From Chloroflexota bacterium (GTDB lineage: Bacteria > Chloroflexota > Anaerolineae > UBA4142), in contig JACRBM010000033.1 in NCBI GenBank assembly GCA_016219275.1, positions 50,843-114,842 of the forward strand: DNA of 64,000 nucleotides, read 5' to 3'. This document shows, piece after piece, positions 2,141-13,173 of the stretch. Each line of letters opens with the position of its first letter. Position 1 is the stretch's first letter. Made by a program: the position numbers and the translations under genes. The notes under the pieces were generated by a model, which searched no databases, was not told where the DNA came from, and saw only the letters and a list, made by a program, of their open reading frames with translations.

Positions 2141-4147
2141 TTATTTTGTTTGGTTCCTACTTTTTTTCCCTCTGAACACGACGACACCTGCCGCAATTCC
2201 CAGGACGATAATCACGCCGACAACCGCCGCGCCGTACTCGACGCGAAACGGCGACGAGGTGAGCGCGATTTCACGCGCGGCGCACGCTTCGACGCGCGTT
2301 TCGTTTTCACCCGCGCGATAGGTGACGCGTCCCTGCGCGAGCGCGGCGCGCCAACCGTTTTGCGCCGATTGAAGCAACGCGCGTTTCAACTGCGCCTCGT
2401 CGTCTTTCGGCGATGCCTTGTCGAGCGACGCGAGGGTTGGTGCGAGCGCATCCAGTTGAGCGGAGAATGCGGCGCACGCGGGCGATAAATCTACCTGCTC
2501 GCGATAATCCAACGATGCGAACCACCCGTCCTCGGAACTGCGCCACGCGATATTTTTCGGCGCAAGCGCCGCGCGCACCAACGCCCAGTCCGGCTGATCG
2601 GGTGTGGCGTGCATCAACGCGTTCAGCTTGTTCATCAAGTCCGCCTCGTTCGCGAACGCGATGTTGAGATTGAGCGTTCCCAGGTCTGCCGAGATTTCCG
2701 CGCCCGCACCCACTTGACGCCAGGTATCCACCGTGCGCGTGAGCGATTGTCGCGTCGCGTCGCCAGGTTGTGGTGTGAGAGAAAACGCGATGACACGCGA
2801 CCCAGGTGTCATCGTGACCTGGGTACGCGAAACGGTGAACGCAGGCGGGCGGTACGTCGCGACAAACGCGTCGCCAAGCGCGGCGCGCGCCTTGTCGGCG
2901 GCAGGCGCGACCTCGTTTTGCTCCAACAACGCGCGCGCCCACGCGAGGTTCAGTGATTTGCGCTGCGCCGCCGCGCGTTCCGTCGTGAACAACGGTCCCG
3001 CGCCATTCGGCATGAGTCCGCGCGCCTTGTCGTAATAACTCGCGGCATCGGCGAATACCCCGCGCGTTTGCGCGTCGAGTCCGAGATAAAAATAATCTTC
3101 GGCGAGTTGCTTGCGCGCGTTCGCATCGTTCGTCGCAAGCACTTGCCACTGCTCGACCGCGAGTTGCACGTACGCCGCGACGCGCGGTCCCGTCGCCGCG
3201 CCGGCGCGCGCTTCGTAGATCGCGGCAAGGGCTTGGCGCGCCGCGCGCTGGTTCGGATCGAGCCGCGCGGCGGTTTCGAGTTCGGCAATCGCTTGAGCGT
3301 AAAAACTATCGCGGCGCGGCGTGTCCGGCAACGCGAGTTGGCGCAACACGTTGCCGAGCGCGGCGCGCGCGTTCGCGTCGTTCGGCGCTTGCTGTGCCGC
3401 GCGGCGTTTCACGTTCAACTCACTCCACACCGCCGGGCGAATGAACGTGAGCGTCGGGTTCGCCACCGGTTCGTTCGTCGTGAAATTCCAACGCAAACTG
3501 CGCCCGTCGAAATGCGGGTTCGGCGGATCGAACGCGATAATCTGTTCGAGCGTCGTGTTTTCCGGAAATTGCATTTCGAGCCGCGCGCTCCCGACACTGC
3601 CCTTCCACCCGGTCGCCGGAAATAAACCGTAGGTAAAACGCGGCACGAGACTGTCACCCAGGTCTTGTTGAAAATCGAACCGCACCGTTTTCTTTTCGTC
3701 GCCGGCGATCGCGAGCGTGAAGGTGTACCAATCCACGTTGCGTACTTCTTTGCCGATTCTGAGATCGGCTTTCGCCGGATTCAACGTGTTTATTTTCTTG
3801 CCCTCCAGCGTCACGATGAACACATCGAGTCGCGCGGGGTCGAAGGTGTACGCATCGCCCGCCCAAGCCGGAAAACCGACCGCGATGGAGAGATCATTGA
3901 GCCGGTCGGTGTTGTGAAGTTTGAACGTCGAATTGCCGGTGATGACTGTGCGACCGTTGATCTCGACAATCTCCGCGTCAAGCGTGAGCGCGGTTAACTC
4001 GATGGGTGTGTCGCGCGTGAGCGGCGCGAGTGCGATCGGCACGTTGATCGCAACGGCTTGCGCGCGCGTCGAGTGCGGCAGCACGAATACAATCGCGAGG
4101 AGCGCAACAATTATTGTCGCGAGCAAAATCGTTTTGGTGAATCGCAT
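2141..4147 (-). CDS. secreted, C-terminally membrane-anchored protein with a central TPR-like helical region; function unknown
   Basis: N-terminal signal-like MRFTKTILLATIIVALLAIVFVLPHSTRAQA and C-terminal hydrophobic helix GAAVVGVIIVLGIAAGVVVF followed by RGKKSR. The middle is Ala-rich and helical-repeat-like. Confidence 0.6.
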   Translation of the reverse strand: MRFTKTILLATIIVALLAIVFVLPHSTRAQAVAINVPIALAPLTRDTPIELTALTLDAEIVEINGRTVITGNSTFKLHNTDRLNDLSIAVGFPAWAGDAYTFDPARLDVFIVTLEGKKINTLNPAKADLRIGKEVRNVDWYTFTLAIAGDEKKTVRFDFQQDLGDSLVPRFTYGLFPATGWKGSVGSARLEMQFPENTTLEQIIAFDPPNPHFDGRSLRWNFTTNEPVANPTLTFIRPAVWSELNVKRRAAQQAPNDANARAALGNVLRQLALPDTPRRDSFYAQAIAELETAARLDPNQRAARQALAAIYEARAGAATGPRVAAYVQLAVEQWQVLATNDANARKQLAEDYFYLGLDAQTRGVFADAASYYDKARGLMPNGAGPLFTTERAAAQRKSLNLAWARALLEQNEVAPAADKARAALGDAFVATYRPPAFTVSRTQVTMTPGSRVIAFSLTPQPGDATRQSLTRTVDTWRQVGAGAEISADLGTLNLNIAFANEADLMNKLNALMHATPDQPDWALVRAALAPKNIAWRSSEDGWFASLDYREQVDLSPACAAFSAQLDALAPTLASLDKASPKDDEAQLKRALLQSAQNGWRAALAQGRVTYRAGENETRVEACAAREIALTSSPFRVEYGAAVVGVIIVLGIAAGVVVFRGKKSRNQTK

Positions 4148-4203: not shown

Positions 4204-5454
4204 TTAATTTCCGTTCGATTCGGATGGCGGTTTGAGCGGGATCGCCAGCGTCACTTTGGTGCCCTTGCCGATTTTCGAATCAATCGTCAGTTTGCCGCGC
4301 GCGAGTTCTGCGCGTTCTTTCATGTTCAACAAACCGAGCGAGCCGCGTTGCGCGTACGCTTCTTCCACACTCGCCACGTCAAAACCCTTGCCATCGTCGC
4401 GCACGCTCAACACCAATATCTCTGGCGTTTCACGCGCGGAAATCCAGATGCTTTTGGCGTGCGCGTGTTTCTTGGCGTTGCCCACCGCTTCTTGAACGAT
4501 CGAAAATACCGCGCCCTCGATCTTGGGCGCAAAACGCATCGTGATATCGTCCGCTTCGAGAAACACCGGGGTGCCGTTCGCCTCGCGTAAACGTTCGACG
4601 TAGACTTGGAGCGCGGCGTGCAAACCCTGGGTTTCGAGCGCGACGGGACGCAAATCGAACAGCATGTTGCGAACCTGGTGCATCGCCGTCGTCGCGAGGC
4701 GTTCGAGATCGGTGACTTCGGTATCGGTGCGTTCGGGCTGGCGCGCGATGACGTTGCGGAGATGCTTGAGTCCCATCACGAGCGACGCGAGAATTTGCGA
4801 TGGACCGTCGTGCAGATCGCGCGCAAGTTCGCGGCGCACTTCTTCTTCGACTGCGAGGATGCGGTCGCGCTCGGCAACGATTTGCTGATACAATCGCGCG
4901 TTCTCGATCACGATGGCGGATTGCGCGGCGAATGCCATCAACAATTCCTGGTCGTCGGCGTTAAAACGTTCGCCCGATTGTTTGTTCAATACTTCGATGA
5001 CGCCGATGGGATTGCTTTTATAAATCAGCGGCGCGGCGAGCAGTGACACGGTTTGAAACGCGAGCGTCTCATCCATGCGCGTCAAAAAGCGCGGATCGGA
5101 GGCGGCGTGATGGACGGTCGCCGGCAAACGCCGCGTAAAGACCCAGCCCGCGATGCCTTCGTCGGTGCGGATGCGTTTGTTGAGCAGGGCTTTGCCGCCG
5201 CCGCCTTGCACGACCTGAAACACCAATTCGTTCGTGGTTTTGTCGAGCAACAGCAACGAACCAGCCGTCGCCTTCAACACGTCCATCGCGTTCGAGAGAA
5301 TGAGCGCGAGCAAACGATCCAGGCGCAGTTCGGACGCAAGCGTATGCGCGACTTCTTGCAGCGTTTCGAGCGCGGCAATGCGCTGTTCTAAGAGAGCAAT
5401 TTTCTTTTCAAGTTCTGGGCGAGTGCGTTCGCCTAACGAACCAGGCGCATCCAT
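4204..5454 (-). CDS. GAF domain sensor histidine kinase (HisKA_3 + HATPase_c)
   Basis: N-terminal coiled coil, then a GAF-like region (IAGWVF...LLAAPL...VIEVLNK). H-box DLHDGPSQ; ATPase motifs NAKKHA, DDGKGF and GSLGLLNMKERA. Confidence 0.85.
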   Translation of the reverse strand: MDAPGSLGERTRPELEKKIALLEQRIAALETLQEVAHTLASELRLDRLLALILSNAMDVLKATAGSLLLLDKTTNELVFQVVQGGGGKALLNKRIRTDEGIAGWVFTRRLPATVHHAASDPRFLTRMDETLAFQTVSLLAAPLIYKSNPIGVIEVLNKQSGERFNADDQELLMAFAAQSAIVIENARLYQQIVAERDRILAVEEEVRRELARDLHDGPSQILASLVMGLKHLRNVIARQPERTDTEVTDLERLATTAMHQVRNMLFDLRPVALETQGLHAALQVYVERLREANGTPVFLEADDITMRFAPKIEGAVFSIVQEAVGNAKKHAHAKSIWISARETPEILVLSVRDDGKGFDVASVEEAYAQRGSLGLLNMKERAELARGKLTIDSKIGKGTKVTLAIPLKPPSESNGN

Positions 5455-5477: not shown

Positions 5478-7151
5478 TCAGTCCGCGGGATTTTTGCGCG
5501 GACGTGGAGCGAGCAGTTTCCGAATGTACGGCACTTGAATCCGCGCGGCGTCTTCGCCGGCTTGAATGATTTCATTCACTTTGTCGTACTCGCGCAAATG
5601 ATAACGCGCAACATCCGGCGCGATCAGCACATCCAAGGGTTGCAACCGGGAGCGAATGATTTCGCTCTCCATAATTTCCCGTTCACCCAACATCACGTCC
5701 ACCAGGTTCGGCGAACGATTGTCGCGTTTCATGCGTTGCAGGCGCAAACGATCTTGCGGCGTGGGGATCACGCTAGACGCGATGATGATGCTCATGCCGC
5801 GTTCGCCCAGTACGCGCGTCGGCACGGGATTCGTCGCGCCGCCGTCAATCAAGAACCGCCCTTCGTATTCGACCGGTTCGAGCAGACCGCCAATGCTCAT
5901 GCTCGCGCGCACGGCTTGGGCGAGCGGTCCGCGTTCAAAAACAATCTCTTCGCCAGACACCAAATCCGCCGTCACCACCGCGAACGGGATTTGTAATTCG
6001 GCAAACGCCTTGTCTTCGAGTTGTGTGCGCAGATGACGCAACAACGCATCGCCTTTGATCAAACCCGAGCGCGGCGGCAGCCGCACATCCCAGTTCCGAA
6101 AACCAGTGAACGGATTGTACTCGCGATGCACCGTACCGGCGAATTTGATCAGATCGTCAATCGGTCTGCCCGCCGCGAACATCGCGCCGAAAAACGCGCC
6201 CGCGCTCGTGCCCGAAATCATATCCAAGGGGATATTTTCTTCGCGCAATACTTTGAGCACGCCGATGTGCGCGATGCCACGCGCATTGCCGCTCGACAAC
6301 GCCAAACCGATCTGTCGCCGCGCGAGTCGCCGCGCGACGCGATGGATGTCCTCCGCCGTATCATTCGCGAAGAGGCGATGACGCGGCGCGATGATCTCGC
6401 CTTGAAAGGCAAACGACGCGCCAATGACGACGCGCAGATCGGATTGGTCCACCGCCTTCAACACCAAGGGGCTTTCGACGGGAGGAATCCAGAGCAAAGC
6501 CCAGTAAAAGCGTTTGAGCAGTTCGCTCAACTGCGCGGGCAATCGTTCGGCAGGCACCCCTTCGCCGGCATACGTGTAATACACGTGATTCGGCGCGAGC
6601 GTCGCGGGGTCGAGCGGTTGATTGCTTCCACCCAAATCCAAAAGCGCGACATCCTCGGCGCTGACTTGCGCGAGATGTTCGGCGAGCATCGGTGCGCAAT
6701 CGCCGATCACCGCGATGACCGTCATCTCTTTCGGCTGGATCGGCGCGTTCAACGAACGGCGCAACCGCGCGTGCAATTCGCGAATGATCGTCATCGCCAT
6801 CGGCGGGTACTGCGCGAGCAACGCGAGCAAGTCGGCGTGACTCAACAACAAAAATTCGGCGTCAATCACGACATAGACGCTGGCGGAGTGATTGCCGCCA
6901 AACAGCGCCGCGCCTTCGCCGAAAAAGTTTCCCGGACCGAGATACAGAATGAACCGGGCTTCGCCGCGTTGCTCGGAAACGATTTTGACAAGACCGCTTT
7001 CGATAAAGTACATCGAATCGTCGGGTTCGCCGGATTGAAAAACGGATGCGCCTTTACGCAAGCGGCGGCATTGCAAGCGTTGGGCAACCGCGTCCAATTC
7101 TTCATCGCGGAGTGTGCTAAAGAAGGGAATTTTACGTAGGCGTTCTCTCAT
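5478..7151 (-). CDS. cyclic-nucleotide-binding domain + patatin-like phospholipase (paralog B)
   Basis: CNB domain with FGEGAALFGGNHSASV. Patatin motifs SSGNARGIAHIGV, GTSAGA and FLIDGGATNPVP. Confidence 0.9.
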   Translation of the reverse strand: MRERLRKIPFFSTLRDEELDAVAQRLQCRRLRKGASVFQSGEPDDSMYFIESGLVKIVSEQRGEARFILYLGPGNFFGEGAALFGGNHSASVYVVIDAEFLLLSHADLLALLAQYPPMAMTIIRELHARLRRSLNAPIQPKEMTVIAVIGDCAPMLAEHLAQVSAEDVALLDLGGSNQPLDPATLAPNHVYYTYAGEGVPAERLPAQLSELLKRFYWALLWIPPVESPLVLKAVDQSDLRVVIGASFAFQGEIIAPRHRLFANDTAEDIHRVARRLARRQIGLALSSGNARGIAHIGVLKVLREENIPLDMISGTSAGAFFGAMFAAGRPIDDLIKFAGTVHREYNPFTGFRNWDVRLPPRSGLIKGDALLRHLRTQLEDKAFAELQIPFAVVTADLVSGEEIVFERGPLAQAVRASMSIGGLLEPVEYEGRFLIDGGATNPVPTRVLGERGMSIIIASSVIPTPQDRLRLQRMKRDNRSPNLVDVMLGEREIMESEIIRSRLQPLDVLIAPDVARYHLREYDKVNEIIQAGEDAARIQVPYIRKLLAPRPRKNPAD

Positions 7152-7181: not shown

Positions 7182-8861
7182 TTATGCATTCATCGGTTTG
7201 CGTGGACGCGGCGCGAACAATTGCCGGATGGTGGGTAGCTGTGCGCGCGCGGCTTCTTCACCGCGTTGGATCAATTCGCGGACTTTGTCATATTCGAACG
7301 TGCCATAGCGCGCAATGTTGGGCGAGATGAGCACATCTACCGGACCCATCCGCGTGCGGATGATCTCGCTCTCCATTATTTCTTGCGCGCCCATGATGAT
7401 GCCGAGAAAGTTGGGCAGTTTCCCTTCGCGCTTGAGTTCGCGGCGATGCAATCGGTCTTCGAGACTGGGAATGACGCTACTCGCCAAGATGATGTTCGCG
7501 CCGCGATCGGCAAGCAATTGCGTCGGCACGGGATTGACCGAGCCGCCGTCAATCAAGAAGCGTCCCGCTACCGACGCCGGTTCGAGCACGCCGATCACGC
7601 TCATGCTTGCGCGGACGGCTTCCGCCACGGGTCCTCGATCAAACACAATCTCTTCGCCAGAAATCAAGTCGCACGCAATAATATACATAGGGACAGTCAA
7701 ATCGTCAAATGTTTTGTTGCCGAGCATTTGGCGGAAATAACCGAGAACCATATCGCCTTTGATCAAACCGGAGCGCGGCGGGATGCGAAAATCCCAAAAG
7801 CGAAAGCCAGTCATAAAATTGTACTTGTTCCGCACATCGTCGGCGAACGCGAAAATCTCGTCGAACGAGCGTCCCGCCGCGTAGAGCGAGCCGAACACGG
7901 CGCCGGCGCTGGTGCCGGCGATCAGGTCAATCGGGATGCCTTCTTCTTCGAGCACTTTGAGCACGCCGATATGCGCCATGCCGCGCGCGTTGCCGCTGGA
8001 AAGCGCGATGCCGACCACGCGTTGCGCGATACGCCGCGCAAGTCGCTGAATCGCCTTGTCGCTCGAATCCGCGTGCCACAACCCTTTCGGCGCGACATTA
8101 CGCAACCACGCCGGTTCGTCATCGCCAACCTGGACCGTAATGTCCGCCAATTCCATCGCCTTGAGCGTGAGCGGGGTTTCGTATGGCGAGACGCACAATA
8201 ACACCCAATAAAATTGCTCGACGAGGCGGCTCAGGTATCCCGCCAAGGTTTCGGTATCGAGTTGCGCGTCGCGGATGAGCGTCACATTCGCGCGCGCCAA
8301 CATGCCCTGGCTTAAGGTCACATTCGCCAGTCCACCCAGGTCGAGCACGGTCACGGGTTCGCCGGTCACCTGGGCAAGGTAACGCGCGAGCGTAGGCGCG
8401 GCGCGTCCCACCGTCGCAACGATGTTGAACTCTTCGCGCAACACGGGCGTTTGCTGCGACTTGCCCAAGCGGCGACCCAGTTCGCGCGTCATCATCAACG
8501 CGATGGCGGGGTGTTGTTGCAATAACTCTTCGAGATCGTGCTGCCGCAGCACAAGCAAATCCGCGTCAATCACCACGCGCACGGTCGCCGAACGCTTTTC
8601 GGCGAGCAGCAGCGCCATCTCGCCGAAGAAATTGCCGGGACCGAGATAGTTGTAAATTTTTTCGCGCCCGCTTTTCTCGGAGACAACCTTGACCTGCCCA
8701 CTCTCGATGATGTACATACAATCGCCCGGTTCGTCTTCCGCAAAGACGATCGCGCCTTTGTGATAATGCTCACGCTGGAGACGCCGCGAAATTGCGTCCA
8801 GGACAGTATCATCTAGTTCGTTGAAAAAGGGAATCTGCCGCAGGTCGTGTTTACTAGCCAT
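7182..8861 (-). CDS. cyclic-nucleotide-binding domain + patatin-like phospholipase (paralog A)
   Basis: CNB domain with the canonical cassette FGEMALLLAEKRSATV. Patatin motifs SSGNARGMAHIGV, GTSAGA and FLIDGGSVNPVP. Confidence 0.9.
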   Translation of the reverse strand: MASKHDLRQIPFFNELDDTVLDAISRRLQREHYHKGAIVFAEDEPGDCMYIIESGQVKVVSEKSGREKIYNYLGPGNFFGEMALLLAEKRSATVRVVIDADLLVLRQHDLEELLQQHPAIALMMTRELGRRLGKSQQTPVLREEFNIVATVGRAAPTLARYLAQVTGEPVTVLDLGGLANVTLSQGMLARANVTLIRDAQLDTETLAGYLSRLVEQFYWVLLCVSPYETPLTLKAMELADITVQVGDDEPAWLRNVAPKGLWHADSSDKAIQRLARRIAQRVVGIALSSGNARGMAHIGVLKVLEEEGIPIDLIAGTSAGAVFGSLYAAGRSFDEIFAFADDVRNKYNFMTGFRFWDFRIPPRSGLIKGDMVLGYFRQMLGNKTFDDLTVPMYIIACDLISGEEIVFDRGPVAEAVRASMSVIGVLEPASVAGRFLIDGGSVNPVPTQLLADRGANIILASSVIPSLEDRLHRRELKREGKLPNFLGIIMGAQEIMESEIIRTRMGPVDVLISPNIARYGTFEYDKVRELIQRGEEAARAQLPTIRQLFAPRPRKPMNA

Positions 8862-8863
8862 GT

Positions 8864-11800
8864 TTATGCCTGGTTCTTCAATTCATCGAGTTCGGCGCGT
8901 GTCCGTGCGGCTTCCGCTTGCGCGCCCAATCGTTCGAACGTCGCCAACGCATCGGTGAACGCGGCGTGCGCGCCGTCTAAATCAAGACGCGCGCGCAAGA
9001 CGAGACCGAGTTGATACCGTGTCCGCGCGAGTTCGATGGGATTGTTGAGCTTGGTCAGCACGTCCAAACTACGTTGCAAATAGTCCACCGCCACGTCATA
9101 CGCGCCTTGGACGCGCGCCACTTTACCCAGGACGCGCAGCGCTTGACCTTCGTTCACGCGACTGCCAATCTCGGCGGCAAGGGTACGCGCGTCGGCGGCG
9201 GCTTGATACGCTTCGTCAAGCATATCTTTGCCGAGATATGCCTCGCCGGTCAGCCACAACGCTTCCACACGATTCTCTTTATGCCCGATTTCAGTCGCAA
9301 TGTCAAGACTACGTTTGAGCTGTTCCAACGCCCGATCAAACTCTTGCTGCAGAATGAAAACGTGCGCAAGGTTATTAAGTGCGAGACAACATAGGTTGCC
9401 ATCCTTGATTTTCTCGGCGCTTGCCAACGCACCCGCGAAATTGTCGCGCGCGCGGGGATGGTCTCCTTTTTCGCGATAGACCAGACCCAGGTTATTGTTG
9501 ACTTGGGCGATGCCACGCGTGTCGCCGGTCTTTTGCCGGACATCGAGGGTACGCTCAAAATGTATCAACGCGCGATCCCAATCGCCTTGACCGAGCGCGA
9601 TGTTACCCAGGTTGTTGTGTGAGTTGGTGACACCAGTCAGATCGCCGATGGACTCGCGCAAGTGCAACCCTTTTTCAACGTACGCCGCCGCGCGTTCCCA
9701 ATCACCCTTGCGGCTGAAGAGGACAGCCAGTCCGTTATATGTGGATGCCATCTCGCTGTAATTGTCGGTGCCTTCAACGATCTGCAGACTTTTCATTCGC
9801 CACTCGTACGCTTGATCAAATGCGCCGAGACGATATTGTACCCAGCCAATATCATTGTAAATACGCACGCGCTCCGGCACTTGACGATCCAGATGTTCCA
9901 ATTCGCCCAAGGCGTTGTTGAGCCAACGCAACGCTTCGGCATAATCCCCGCGGCGCTCACACACGCGTCCGATTTCGCGCATAATCTCGGCGCTTTGGCG
10001 CTGCGCTTCGACCGTGCGCGTGAGGGCGCGATTCATTTCGAGCGCAATCAAATACGAAGTCGTCGCGCCGTCATAGTCCGCTGTAAAAGTTTGGACGGAA
10101 CCGAGTCCATTGTACAGGTCAATCTTCTGGGTTGTAGTTGGATTGGTTTTACCCAAACATTCGACGGCAAAGCGGAACTGCTTAAGCGCCTGATCGTTCG
10201 CAAATCGCTCTGCGGCATGACTCCCCGCGCGAATCAGACACGGCAATGCGCGATCGTAATCCTTGCTTTCGTAATAGTGAAACGCCAGCTCTTCCGTGTG
10301 CTCGTCGAGACGCTCTTTAAATTGCGCTTCAATCCCTTCCGCGATTTTGTGATGCAGAAACTCACGTCGCCGCACCAAGAGACTAGCATAGACCGTCTCT
10401 TGAATCAAGATGTGATTGAAACGATAATGCACGTCGCCATCCGCACCGATGCGACTGACCAACGCGCGTTCTTCCAACTCACCCACTTGGTCGGCAAGGT
10501 TACGCGCATCCTCCAAGGTGCTCGAAAGCAAGCGCAGTCCAAAATCACGCCCGATCACGGCAGCACACTGCGCCGCTTGCCGCGCGCCCTCGCTCAACGC
10601 GTCCACGCGCGTCATAATCAAACCTTGCAAAGTGGTCGGTACTTGAACGTCGTCCACAGCCGCGCCCGGCACAATCTGCCAACGATCCTCCTCGCGCCGA
10701 ATGATGCCGCGATCAATCAACATGCGAATGATCTCTTCGAGGTAGAATGGATTTCCTTCGGCGCGTTGCAGAATAATTTGCCGAAGCCGTTCGGGCAATT
10801 CGTGAATAGTCAAAAGTAAGTCAACTAACTCGACGCTGTCCGCATGTGAGAGGGGCATCAGGGGAAGATGCAGAAATTGCGCCGCATACGACTGCGTGCC
10901 AAGTTTCTCCAAGCGCGGCGCAGCCGTACCTTCAGTTGGACGCGAGTTGCAATAGATAACGACCGGGCTGCGCTCAATCACATTATTAATAAAAACTAGC
11001 AAGTCGAGCGAAACCGGATCAATCCAATGCACGTCTTCGAAAATGAGCACGAGCGGGCGATACCGCGCGCGTGCGATGAGCAATTCGCGAATCGCGAGAA
11101 AGGTTTGCTGTTGTAACTGGGGCGGTGCGAGATGGCGGATGCGCGCCGCCATTTCTTTTTCGAGAACACGAATCGAAAAGAGATGCTCGATGTACGGCAA
11201 GATGTCGGCGCGTGATTGTTCGGGCAACAAATATTCGTTCGCGGTGCGTTCGATTTTTTCGCGCACCACTTGCTCGGAATCATCGTCAGCGATACCAAAG
11301 TACATTTTGAGCAAACGGATAAACATTCCGTATGCAGGTTGCCCGTAAGCGAGACACGCGCCTTCGAGCACTGTCACATGTTGGTCAACGAGATGTGCTT
11401 TGAGTTCCGTAGTCAAGCGCGATTTTCCAATGCCGGCGTTGCCGGTTGCTAGAACGAGCCGCCCCATACCCTCTTCAACGAGCGCATCAACGGCTTGACG
11501 AACTTGCGCGAATTCGGCGCGACGCCCAACCATTGGCGCGCTCAAGCCAGGAATTCCACGCACACGACCTTCGTGTTTGCGCGGCGCGACGGCTTCGAAA
11601 ATCTCAACTGGCTCGACACGATTCTTAACGCGAATCGCGCCCAGCTCGCGGTACTCGAACAATGGATTAGTCGGTTCGTAAACCGCACGACTAACCAGAA
11701 TCGTGCCTGGCTCTCCCGCATTCTGCAAACGCGACGCGACGTTCACCGTATCGCCGAGCGCGGTATACTCCATGCGCAGATCCGAACCGATGCTGCCGAC

Positions 11801-12388
11801 AACGACTAGCCCGGCATTGAGACCGATCCGGACTTGAAGCGTAATCCCCAAACGCGATTCGAGGTCGGCATTGATTCGCCGCAACGCGTCTTGCATTCCA
11901 AATGCGGTACGCACCGCGCGCGCCGAGTCATCTTCATGCGCGATGGGCGCGCCAAACAGTGCCATCAATCCATCGCCCATCACTTTGTCGAGCGTACCCT
12001 CGTGTTTATAGATTTCCTCGGTGAACGCGCGCAGAGTACTGTCAATCAACTCGTATACTTGCTCGGGATCAAGTCGTTCGGAGATGGAGGTATAGCCGCT
12101 CAGGTCTGCGAACAGGACCGTGACATTCCGGCGTTCACCTTCGACCTGCTTGCCGACGCGCGCGATTTTTTCCGCAAGCGAAACCGGCATCGAGTTGGTC
12201 GCGCGCTCGCGATTCTCATCGGCAGTAGGCGTCGTGAGACTCGCGCTGCAATTGCCGCAAAATTTGAAATTGCCGGGGTTTTGAAAATCGCATTGAGCGC
12301 ATCGCCGTGCGAGGGAAGCGGCACAAAACGTACAAGTTGACGCGCCAATGGGATTGGCGCGACCGCACTGTGGGCAAGGCAAAGTCAT
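8864..12388 (-). CDS. double zinc-ribbon + class III adenylate/guanylate cyclase + P-loop STAND NTPase + TPR repeat protein
   Basis: Zinc ribbons CPQCGxxxxxxxxxCxFC and CAQCxxxxxxxxxFCGNC. Cyclase motifs VTVLFADLSGYT, KVMGDGLMALFG and GDTVNVASRL. Walker A LATGNAGIGKSRL; Walker B-like LVLIFEDVHWID. About 500 aa of C-terminal TPR-like repeats. Confidence 0.9.
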   Translation of the reverse strand: MTLPCPQCGRANPIGASTCTFCAASLARRCAQCDFQNPGNFKFCGNCSASLTTPTADENRERATNSMPVSLAEKIARVGKQVEGERRNVTVLFADLSGYTSISERLDPEQVYELIDSTLRAFTEEIYKHEGTLDKVMGDGLMALFGAPIAHEDDSARAVRTAFGMQDALRRINADLESRLGITLQVRIGLNAGLVVVGSIGSDLRMEYTALGDTVNVASRLQNAGEPGTILVSRAVYEPTNPLFEYRELGAIRVKNRVEPVEIFEAVAPRKHEGRVRGIPGLSAPMVGRRAEFAQVRQAVDALVEEGMGRLVLATGNAGIGKSRLTTELKAHLVDQHVTVLEGACLAYGQPAYGMFIRLLKMYFGIADDDSEQVVREKIERTANEYLLPEQSRADILPYIEHLFSIRVLEKEMAARIRHLAPPQLQQQTFLAIRELLIARARYRPLVLIFEDVHWIDPVSLDLLVFINNVIERSPVVIYCNSRPTEGTAAPRLEKLGTQSYAAQFLHLPLMPLSHADSVELVDLLLTIHELPERLRQIILQRAEGNPFYLEEIIRMLIDRGIIRREEDRWQIVPGAAVDDVQVPTTLQGLIMTRVDALSEGARQAAQCAAVIGRDFGLRLLSSTLEDARNLADQVGELEERALVSRIGADGDVHYRFNHILIQETVYASLLVRRREFLHHKIAEGIEAQFKERLDEHTEELAFHYYESKDYDRALPCLIRAGSHAAERFANDQALKQFRFAVECLGKTNPTTTQKIDLYNGLGSVQTFTADYDGATTSYLIALEMNRALTRTVEAQRQSAEIMREIGRVCERRGDYAEALRWLNNALGELEHLDRQVPERVRIYNDIGWVQYRLGAFDQAYEWRMKSLQIVEGTDNYSEMASTYNGLAVLFSRKGDWERAAAYVEKGLHLRESIGDLTGVTNSHNNLGNIALGQGDWDRALIHFERTLDVRQKTGDTRGIAQVNNNLGLVYREKGDHPRARDNFAGALASAEKIKDGNLCCLALNNLAHVFILQQEFDRALEQLKRSLDIATEIGHKENRVEALWLTGEAYLGKDMLDEAYQAAADARTLAAEIGSRVNEGQALRVLGKVARVQGAYDVAVDYLQRSLDVLTKLNNPIELARTRYQLGLVLRARLDLDGAHAAFTDALATFERLGAQAEAARTRAELDELKNQA

Positions 12389-12424: not shown

Positions 12425-12453
12425 ATTATACTACAGGTACACTCAACGCGCAA
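12425..12453 (-). promoter_or_regulatory. sigma70-like promoter of the cyclase operon
   Basis: Minus strand reads TTGCGC (12453-12448), 17 nt, TATAAT (12430-12425), about 37 nt upstream of ATG 12388. Confidence 0.5.
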
Positions 12454-12582: not shown

Positions 12583-12975
12583 TTACCGCAGACGGAACAA
12601 AAAGTTCAGCGACCCTTTCCCATTATTCCGCCGCACTTCACTCACGCGACCGTAGTTTGCAGTCACCGTGGGCGTAGATGCTAACTTGCCATCTACGACG
12701 ACAAGCATCCAGTTGTGATCGCCACGTTCGACCACATTTGTGATCAGTGGCACGTTGGGTCCCGGGGTCTTGCAACCACCTTGACGCTGATTGCCATAGC
12801 GCGCGTCATCCGGTACATACACCTTGACTGCTGATGGTTTCGCCGCGATGACCAACAGCCATTCACCGTTGACGCACAACTTGGGGTCGTCCCACGCTTC
12901 ACCCGCGCCGACCGTAGCGAAGGTCAGGGAGAGCAACATCACGACCAGAGTCAACGCAAACAATGTTTTTTTCAT
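12583..12975 (-). CDS. small secreted protein of unknown function (130 aa)
   Basis: ATG at 12975 preceded by AAAGGAGG. Signal peptide MKKTLFALTLVVMLLSLTFATVGAGEA; two Cys. Sits downstream of the riboswitch. Confidence 0.7.
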   Translation of the reverse strand: MKKTLFALTLVVMLLSLTFATVGAGEAWDDPKLCVNGEWLLVIAAKPSAVKVYVPDDARYGNQRQGGCKTPGPNVPLITNVVERGDHNWMLVVVDGKLASTPTVTANYGRVSEVRRNNGKGSLNFLFRLR

Positions 12976-13076: not shown

Positions 13077-13173
13077 CCACTTCGGCAGCCTGGCAATCTT
13101 AGCGCACAGTCCCTACGCTGAAGACCCATAGCTTTGCGTCCTCGCCTTTCGGCGAGTTTGCCTTTATCGGTGG
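13077..13173 (-). ncRNA. c-di-GMP-I (GEMM-I) riboswitch aptamer
   Basis: Minus-strand RNA CCACCGAUAAAGGCAAAC-UCGCC-GAAA-GGCGA-GGACGCAAAGC...GGUCUU...AAGAUU...GGCUGCCGAAGUGG. It has the conserved GGCAAAC, a GAAA-capped hairpin, GGACGCAAAGC as in the Vibrio cholerae Vc2 aptamer, and P1 closing CCAC/GUGG. Confidence 0.75.

Follow-up and report, generated by a model that had tools for sequence, protein, structure and literature searches.

The probable product of the minus-strand open reading frame at 8864..12388 of the window (the whole 64,000-nucleotide stretch of Chloroflexota DNA that was analysed) is a STAND-type signalling protein with a built-in class IIIb adenylyl cyclase specific for ATP; the gene heads an operon of likely cAMP readers. 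cAMP is the best prediction for its product because of the Lys/Thr pair in the catalytic hexad, the class IIIb relatives, the behaviour of the Cya2 E488K variant, the absence of pyrimidine-selecting residues and the operon context. The assignment looks like a routine inference and the protein like an ordinary signalling enzyme, new in itself and of an already known kind.

The reading frame, whose coordinates include the stop codon, specifies 1174 amino acids. Together, the ORF list, Pfam matches and homologues describe a four-part protein, in the order double zinc ribbon, class III cyclase, AAA_16 STAND NTPase and TPR repeats. We found the same architecture in 51 homologues with 40-74% identity to the cyclase protein, and this set was used to score residue conservation. 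The AlphaFold model of the full-length protein had a mean pLDDT of 82. Modelling was poor in the arm for dimerisation (residues 198-207), in the zinc ribbon and in the linker, the last two with pLDDT <55; the ribbon also scored low in the separate domain model.

The cyclase domain spans residues 86-257 (11618..12133, minus strand), as judged from PF00211, PDB alignments, conservation and Foldseek. Its match to the Pfam Guanylate_cyc model (PF00211; E=8.5e-27, 94.4 bits, cut-off 21.9) is far above chance. Among solved structures, the class IIIb enzymes CyaB, CyaC and Cya2 come nearest in both sequence and fold: they were recovered in PDB sequence searches (CyaB 3r5g, E=1.4e-33; Cya2 2w01, E=3.8e-33; CyaC 1wc0, E=2.7e-28) and stood on top of the Foldseek results for the domain model, with target TM-scores of 0.79-0.87. 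The stretch from RIGLN to ASRL, which contains the arm region, aligned to all three without gaps and has the length of the class IIIb references. The initial annotation had called the domain class IIIb-like, and its nearest solved relatives bear this out. Class IIIb is defined by Thr in place of Asp, and every prokaryotic class IIIb enzyme tested, one from Chloroflexus included, responds to inorganic carbon (PMC2613629).

The catalytic motifs are located at residues 93-100 (FADLSGYT), 134-140 (DKVMGDG), 137-146 (MGDGLMALFG) and 207-220 (EYTALGDTVNVASR). Metal-binding aspartates had been placed in the first and third of these motifs, and D95 (codon 12104-12106, minus strand) and D139 (codon 11972-11974, minus strand) indeed paired with the metal aspartates of CyaB, CyaC and Cya2 in the PDB alignments. 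The proposed substrate-defining Lys and Thr were confirmed in the same alignments. K135 (codon 11984-11986, minus strand), four residues ahead of D139, paired with Lys in CyaB and CyaC and with Glu488 in the guanylyl cyclase Cya2; T209 (codon 11762-11764, minus strand), the Thr of YTALG and not that of GDTVN, paired with Thr in CyaB (YTIIG) and CyaC (FTAIG) and with Gly in Cya2. Alignment to characterised class III cyclases, which the initial annotation had suggested as a check, gives the same Lys/Thr pair as in CyaB and CyaC; we take the CyaC counterparts to be Lys1057/Thr1139. The transition-state residues N216 (codon 11741-11743, minus strand) and R220 (codon 11729-11731, minus strand), within VNVASR, paired with the Asn and Arg of the solved cyclases. 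A single chain carries the complete canonical hexad, and each of its six residues was conserved in 51 of 51 homologues. CyaB of P. aeruginosa (3r5g) and CyaC of Spirulina platensis (1wc0/1wc1) share the metal aspartates, Lys, Thr, Asn and Arg, but are merely 31-35% identical to the present cyclase domain; they have no fused zinc ribbon, STAND NTPase or TPRs, and their regulatory modules differ, that of CyaB being MASE2.

Overall similarity does not decide the substrate, since the best-scoring solved relative in one PDB search (best 60 of its 70 matches listed) was the guanylyl cyclase Cya2; the specificity call is a prediction read from two residues. Class III cyclases are also able to make minor amounts of other cNMPs. 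Cya2 of Synechocystis (2w01) is of the same subclass and as near as CyaB (E=2.3e-33 to 3.8e-33, ~36% identity), and CNB and GAF receptors of the type encoded downstream can bind either purine nucleotide, which would suit a guanylyl cyclase or a dual enzyme making cAMP and cGMP. We consider such an enzyme improbable: wild-type Cya2 has Glu and Gly at the two substrate positions, where Lys and Thr stand here, and Glu-to-Lys alone, in the engineered E488K form (6fht), switches Cya2 from GTP to ATP specificity, the other nucleotide being converted only to a small extent, and its motif then reads DKFMGDG (wild type DEFMGDG) like that of the present cyclase (PMC5995499). A catalytically silent domain serving purely for dimerisation or regulation has precedent in the wider family, some of whose domains, including the second domains of 2250-2370-aa tandem proteins, are without catalytic residues; with all six residues present here and invariant among the homologues, we regard this as extremely improbable. 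A Pycsar-type pyrimidine cyclase, making cCMP or cUMP despite the Lys/Thr pair, was also weighed. Like a Pycsar locus, this one places a class III-type cyclase gene next to a CNB-domain effector gene, with a gap of 2 nt, and the PADLOC PycC profiles matched the cyclase domain (best 98.6 bits, E=1e-28). At 94.4 bits, the general Pfam cyclase model fits about equally well, so the PycC profile match reflects the shared fold and does not tell the two kinds of cyclase apart. Solved PycC clades select pyrimidines by differing residues, so further solutions may exist. The published selecting residues are R142/Q144 in EaPycC, K104/F109 in AnPycC and Y50/D94/R97 in BcPycC, and all were absent in a comparison with PycC, as the initial annotation had advised, made by position relative to the metal aspartates from the published residue numbers. 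At positions -4, -2 and +3 around D139 the present enzyme has K135, M137 and M142 (K, V and M in both CyaB and CyaC), whereas EaPycC has R142 at -4 and Q144 at -2, and AnPycC has K104 at -2 and F109 at +3. Of the 70 matches at E≤10 in the PDB sequence search, the best 60 contained no PycC, and neither did the Foldseek top 50 for the domain model. The cyclase also differs from those of Pycsar in its 1174-aa, STAND-fused form and purine-type pocket residues, and the effector is a patatin lipase where Pycsar has a TM or TIR module. Together with the conserved purine hexad and a locus vertically conserved beside housekeeping genes, without the sporadic distribution of defence islands, these differences make a pyrimidine cyclase very improbable. 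The earlier argument against a canonical Pycsar is strengthened on three counts: the missing pyrimidine-selecting residues, the lack of PycC in the listed matches and the vertical housekeeping locus.

Beyond the cyclase domain, residues 286-478 (10955..11533, minus strand) form a STAND-type P-loop NTPase, recognised by Pfam AAA_16 (83.2 bits) and by intact Walker A (GNAGIGKS, 316-323) and Walker B (LIFED, 448-452) motifs, of which K322 and D452 were invariant in the 51 homologues. From about residue 672 to residue 1174 (8867..10375, minus strand), Pfam TPR_12 (167.9 bits) and TPR_MalT (51.6 bits) and the structural model delineate a TPR superhelix, the presumed sensor, with helical repeats modelled at pLDDT 80-97. 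In the fold search, the full-length model came closest to the STAND-TPR crystal structure 6mfv (E=9.5e-15). As in 6mfv and the MalT/LAL-type regulators, a P-loop NTPase is followed by a helical/winged-helix arm and then a TPR superhelix; the output there is a DNA-binding domain, whereas here it is the N-terminal cyclase. Since the two structures superpose poorly overall (global TM-score 0.26 by query, 0.41 by target), it is the architecture alone that is common. Gating of the cyclase by the NTPase/TPR module, which the initial annotation had thought probable, is plausible in view of the intact, conserved Walker motifs and this fold match.

The double zinc ribbon at residues 5-47 (12248..12376, minus strand) was identified by Pfam DZR (29.9 bits, cut-off 27.3) and by its eight cysteines in four CxxC pairs, four of them invariant and the other four each found in 50 of the 51 homologues. 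For the otherwise identical protein, the public annotation (P0001; 1108 aa, 94% coverage) starts at M67, ~66 residues later, and the public gene call thus misses the ribbon; the exact 1174-aa form is not on record. The initial annotation had regarded the ribbon as an unusual addition, which did not hold: it is the norm in a very large family. At E≤1e-30, a search with residues 1-290 retrieved 10,137 cluster representatives; of the 150 best matches, most align from query residue 2-5 and are 1100-1300 aa long, and the ribbon cysteines occur in 102-130 of 189 aligned domains of the wider family.

Members of this wider cyclase-STAND-TPR family are annotated as "adenylate/guanylate cyclase domain-containing protein" in rhizobia, Variovorax and Cupriavidus, with the same domain order and usually the zinc ribbon. 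Outside the Chloroflexi orthologue group they are merely 27-40% identical, and in many the K/T pair is replaced by Q/T or R/T. At the positions of K135 and T209 the 189 aligned domains carried K/T in 72 cases, Q/T in 30 and R/T in 25; read from these sequences, the Lys position is evolvable in the wider family. By tblastn, 977 plasmid records matched from residue 1-2 to ~970-996, with several copies in single replicons. Contig scans (genome contigs with the family alignment, metagenome contigs with the protein) returned distant relatives of 25-40% identity among the matches listed, and give no orthologue statistics. The NCBIfam model TIGR03903, "TOMM system kinase/cyclase fusion protein", aligns over residues 77-747, but with 252.1 bits against a cut-off of 705.75 and over profile positions 276-923 alone, and there is no kinase domain here. 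The cyclase-ATPase-LuxR proteins Rv0386, Rv1358 and Rv2488c of M. tuberculosis are of the same kind.

Downstream of the cyclase gene lie genes for candidate receivers of its messenger. The first, at 7182..8861 (minus strand), starts 2 nt past the cyclase stop and encodes a 559-aa cNMP-binding and patatin-like phospholipase by Pfam and motifs, with an intact CRP-like phosphate-binding cassette (FFGEMALL..KRSATV) and the patatin motifs GTSAG, DGG and SGNARG. A second cNMP-binding patatin of 557 aa (5478..7151, minus strand), assigned from Pfam and its cassette sequence, has His in place of the cassette Arg (GGNHSASV), a replacement kept in the orthologous second copy of locus L081. Next is a 416-aa GAF, HisKA_3 and HATPase_c histidine kinase (4204..5454, minus strand; Pfam), whose GAF domain found its best PDB matches in the cNMP-binding GAFs of CyaB2, 5w10, PDE5, PDE2A and PDE10A. 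Top matches of the CNB and GAF domains include both cAMP- and cGMP-binding proteins; family resemblance suggests that they would bind cAMP. Last in the row is a conserved 668-aa protein with hydrophobic N- and C-terminal stretches (2141..4147, minus strand; ORF and sequence). It had no Pfam or NCBIfam match; proteins similar in size and position occur at loci L081, L083, L085, L168 and L171. Scanning for promoters and terminators gave no more candidates than expected from shuffled sequence (8 vs 4.6 +/- 2.5 and 21 vs 19.4 +/- 4.6), so the operon is called from the spacing of the genes and their conserved order. Literature searches on characterised cyclase-STAND-TPR proteins and on cAMP-activated bacterial patatins found nothing directly relevant; for the c-di-GMP-I-GGC riboswitch variant, a search on its ligand brought up passing mentions only.

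Gene context was taken from ten exact-protein look-ups, and ten orthologous loci were compared, the window and nine others with at least 48% identity. Their gene order is cyclase, zero to two CNB-patatin genes, then GAF-HisKA_3 kinase: the kinase was present downstream at 10 of 10 loci, and one or two patatin genes at eight. The flanking genes encode Fpg, DAGK, a PD40 propeller and a methyltransferase, that is, housekeeping genes, and no mobile or defence genes were seen near the cyclase in the ten loci (48-100% identity). The locus is thus probably a chromosomal signalling operon, passed on vertically in an Anaerolineae-like Chloroflexi lineage, and not a mobile defence system.

The same gene arrangement could instead be read as a module for abortive infection or defence that works through cAMP, the purine equivalent of Pycsar or CBASS, in which the STAND/TPR part sees a phage component, the cyclase makes cAMP and the patatins destroy the membrane. 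Known defence systems include some with STAND NTPases that have repeat sensors and some with patatin effectors, the cyclase gene adjoins that of a CNB effector, and the orthologous loci differ in carrying 0 to 2 patatin copies. Along with the PycC profiles, the PADLOC PycTIR-CNB and phospholipase-effector profiles gave domain-level matches at the locus; the TIR-effector profiles reach just the CNB part of the patatin protein (residues 17-137). We nevertheless judge this reading unlikely. Synteny with housekeeping genes is kept across the ten loci, the invariable partner of the cyclase is the histidine kinase and not the lipase, the patatin part is nearest to RssA (131 bits) with the CBASS lipase model at merely 20 bits, and none of 80 distant family loci, from many phyla, had a patatin neighbour. 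The housekeeping synteny and the RssA-like lipase likewise leave us doubtful of a chromosomally fixed cAMP immune or stress pathway, in which the STAND/TPR-cyclase would trigger the cNMP-gated patatins and, in parallel, the cNMP-GAF kinase.

For the favoured signalling operon, the following mechanism can be proposed by comparison with class III cyclases and STAND proteins. With the complete hexad on one chain, the cyclase domain is expected to pair head to tail with a second copy of itself, giving a homodimer that has two active sites. Selection of adenine should fall to Lys135 and Thr209, which would make 3',5'-cAMP the product. The TPR region would keep the NTPase off until ligand binding brings about nucleotide exchange and oligomerisation of the STAND part; oligomerisation may then pair two cyclase domains and switch on cAMP synthesis. 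As a class IIIb enzyme, the cyclase may in addition respond to CO2/bicarbonate. Gene order and domain types suggest that cAMP is read by the directly downstream products, with one or two cNMP-binding patatin lipases acting on membrane lipids and the cNMP-type GAF histidine kinase feeding a NarL/LuxR-type transcriptional output.

These results fix a likely messenger, cAMP, for an uncharacterised but conserved Chloroflexi operon, which no longer counts as a Pycsar candidate. They also correct the public gene start, restoring a conserved zinc ribbon to the protein. The gene context is more useful than the annotation: across the ten loci a cNMP-GAF kinase always comes after the STAND-type cyclase, and patatins usually do as well. 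Together they would form a three-component cAMP circuit that is open to direct testing, in a phylum with hardly any work on cAMP signalling.

The cyclase gene occupies positions 8864-12388 on the minus strand of the window, which derives from a Chloroflexi metagenome-assembled genome, as an ORF of 1174 aa. Pfam places a double zinc ribbon at residues 5-47, a class III cyclase domain at residues 86-257 (E=8.5e-27), and an AAA_16 P-loop NTPase at residues 286-478, followed by TPR_12/TPR_MalT repeats that extend to the C-terminus. The public record of this protein, P0001, is 1108 aa long and 100% identical across 94% of the query. Its start lies ~66 residues later, omitting the zinc ribbon; the missing part corresponds to positions 12191-12388 (minus strand). 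Because the zinc-ribbon cysteines are kept in 50-51 of 51 aligned homologues, sequence conservation indicates that the 1174-aa start, not that of P0001, is the right one.

Each of the motifs quoted in the initial annotation was found in the cyclase at the place given for it. Alignment to solved cyclases identified D95 and D139 as the metal ligands, K135 and T209 (the Thr in YTALG) as the two substrate-defining residues, and N216 and R220 as the transition-state pair; all six are invariant across 51 homologues of 40-74% identity. Among the closest solved proteins by sequence were CyaB of P. aeruginosa (E=1.4e-33), Cya2 of Synechocystis (E=3.8e-33) and CyaC of Spirulina (E=2.7e-28), and the same three gave the best superpositions both for a model of residues 1-290 (mean pLDDT 71) and for the cyclase domain within the full-length model (mean pLDDT 82). 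CyaB and CyaC share the Lys/Thr pair of the window cyclase, whereas Cya2, a guanylyl cyclase, carries Glu/Gly, so overall similarity cannot settle the substrate and the two specificity residues do. In Cya2 the single change E488K, at the residue that aligns with K135, yields an ATP-specific enzyme with only minor GTP conversion (PMC5995499); the engineered chain (6fht) reads DKFMGDG where the window cyclase reads DKVMGDG. Class IIIb is defined by Thr taking the place of the substrate-binding Asp, and all tested prokaryotic cyclases of this class, including one from Chloroflexus, respond to inorganic carbon (PMC2613629). Taken with the specificity residues, these studies make the earlier proposal, a class IIIb enzyme predicted to convert ATP to cAMP, well founded.

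The wider family adds a caveat to this prediction: there the pair was K/T in 72 of 189 aligned domains, Q/T in 30 and R/T in 25. The Lys position is thus evolvable within the cyclase-STAND-TPR architecture, and its strict retention in the orthologue group (51/51) is, on these alignments, informative and not a given. The same survey overturned the view that the zinc ribbon is an unusual addition. Searching residues 1-290 against 1.84 billion cluster representatives returned 10,137 matches at E<=1e-30. Of the 150 top-ranked, the majority begin aligning at query residue 2-5 and have a length of 1100-1300 aa, and the ribbon cysteines were found in 102-130 of the 189 domains. Cultured Rhizobium, Sinorhizobium, Variovorax and Phyllobacterium hold copies matching from residue 1-2, annotated as 'adenylate/guanylate cyclase domain-containing protein', with up to seven matching places on a single replicon. 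The protein is an addition to an already known, very large family. The ribbon itself was poorly predicted, with low confidence, in both the 1-290 and the full-length model. Thirteen of the best 150 relatives are 2250-2370 aa long and contain two or three matched cyclase stretches (database proteins P0123, P0124, P0130, P0131, P0133 and P0134 among them). By their sequence layout these look like tandem duplications of the entire architecture, and some of their cyclase domains are without catalytic residues.

The C-terminal module retains intact Walker motifs, with Walker A Lys322 and Walker B Asp452 invariant across the 51 homologues. In the full-length model a nucleotide-binding domain is followed by hairpins of winged-helix type and then by TPRs arranged in a long superhelix; the best fold match was 6mfv (E=9.5e-15), a STAND protein with TPR sensor solved by crystallography. 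Class III cyclases are obligate dimers. Considering this alongside what is known of STAND proteins, ligand- and nucleotide-driven oligomerization of the module could gate the cyclase, which makes the NTPase/TPR gating suggested in the initial annotation plausible.

Could the enzyme instead be the pyrimidine cyclase of a Pycsar phage-defence system? PADLOC PycC profiles match the cyclase domain with a best score (98.6 bits) about level with that of the general Pfam cyclase model (94.4 bits). Pyrimidine selection relies on F100, R142 and Q144 in EaPycC (metal aspartates D102/D146), on F60, K104 and F109 in AnPycC (D62/D106), and on Y50, D94 and R97 in BcPycC (PMC11224242). Counted from the second metal Asp, positions -4, -2 and +3 are K, M and M in the window cyclase and K, V and M in CyaB and CyaC. 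Neither the 60 best of 70 PDB sequence matches (E<=10) nor the top 50 fold matches of the cyclase domain model included a PycC. The locus context points the same way. We compared the window with nine other loci whose cyclases are 48-74% identical: a GAF kinase lies downstream of the cyclase in all ten (divided into two ORFs in one locus, L169), and one or two CNB-patatin genes are present in eight. Housekeeping genes flank the cluster (Fpg, diacylglycerol kinase, an RNA methyltransferase and a PD40 propeller). On the order and flanks kept across these ten loci, the locus is a vertically inherited signalling operon and not a defence island. Pocket residues, the structural matches listed and locus context together uphold the earlier argument against a canonical Pycsar system. 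Two homologues at 43-44% identity sit in other gene contexts, and no patatin neighbour occurred in 80 distant family members from many phyla among the matches listed.

Upstream of the cyclase on the same strand, a small ORF (12583-12975) encodes a secreted-type protein of ~130 aa; it carries a signal peptide and the motif W(D/E)DPxLCVNG, and neither Pfam nor NCBIfam gave a match for it. A similar ORF precedes the cyclase in 11 of 11 related loci listed, including L170 (44% identity). Directly upstream of it, at 13080-13171 (minus strand), lies a c-di-GMP-I-class riboswitch aptamer (Rfam RF03167, 'GGC' variant; 76.1 bits, gathering score 59), and the small ORF is probably the gene under its control. 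Rfam detected further copies in L081 (5587-5673; RF01051, 91.7 bits) and L170 (6171-6261; RF03167, 71.5 bits); in eight other related loci the riboswitch was below the gathering score or not found. Reading the printed sequence, we noted a promoter-like TTGCGC-17 nt-TATAAT at 12425-12453 (minus strand), ~35 nt before the ATG of the cyclase gene, which a promoter scan did not report because its first hexamer matches at only 3 of 6 positions. The sequence suggests that the cyclase operon may have its own promoter, apart from the riboswitch-controlled small ORF.

Downstream on the same strand follow CNB-patatin 1, which starts 2 nt past the cyclase stop, CNB-patatin 2 (5478-7151), a GAF-HisKA_3 histidine kinase (4204-5454) and a 668-aa protein (2141-4147) that has hydrophobic stretches at both termini and matched no family. 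In at least five related loci the operon likewise ends with a protein of comparable size and position. The proteins encoded downstream of the cyclase look like cNMP receptors. In CNB-patatin 1 the phosphate-binding cassette (FFGEMALL..KRSATV) is CRP-like, the lipase motifs are intact, and the patatin part is nearest RssA (131 bits; CBASS lipase, 20 bits). In CNB-patatin 2, His replaces the cNMP-contacting Arg of the cassette (GGNHSASV), as it does in the L081 orthologue, whereas CNB-patatin 1 retains Arg; CNB-patatin 2 may lack the usual mode of cNMP binding. The kinase GAF is nearest cyclic-nucleotide-binding GAFs, its best PDB matches being CyaB2 (1ykd, 1.3e-18), 5w10 (1.7e-18), PDE5, PDE2A and PDE10A; GAFs for other signals (PtsP, NifA, DevS) scored far lower. 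Although deposited as 'cGMP-specific phosphodiesterase', 5w10 is, we take it, the cAMP-bound GAF of Leptospira Lcd1. These similarities make the kinase a candidate cAMP-regulated two-component kinase. The interest of the locus lies chiefly in this conserved circuit of cyclase, GAF kinase and CNB-patatin.
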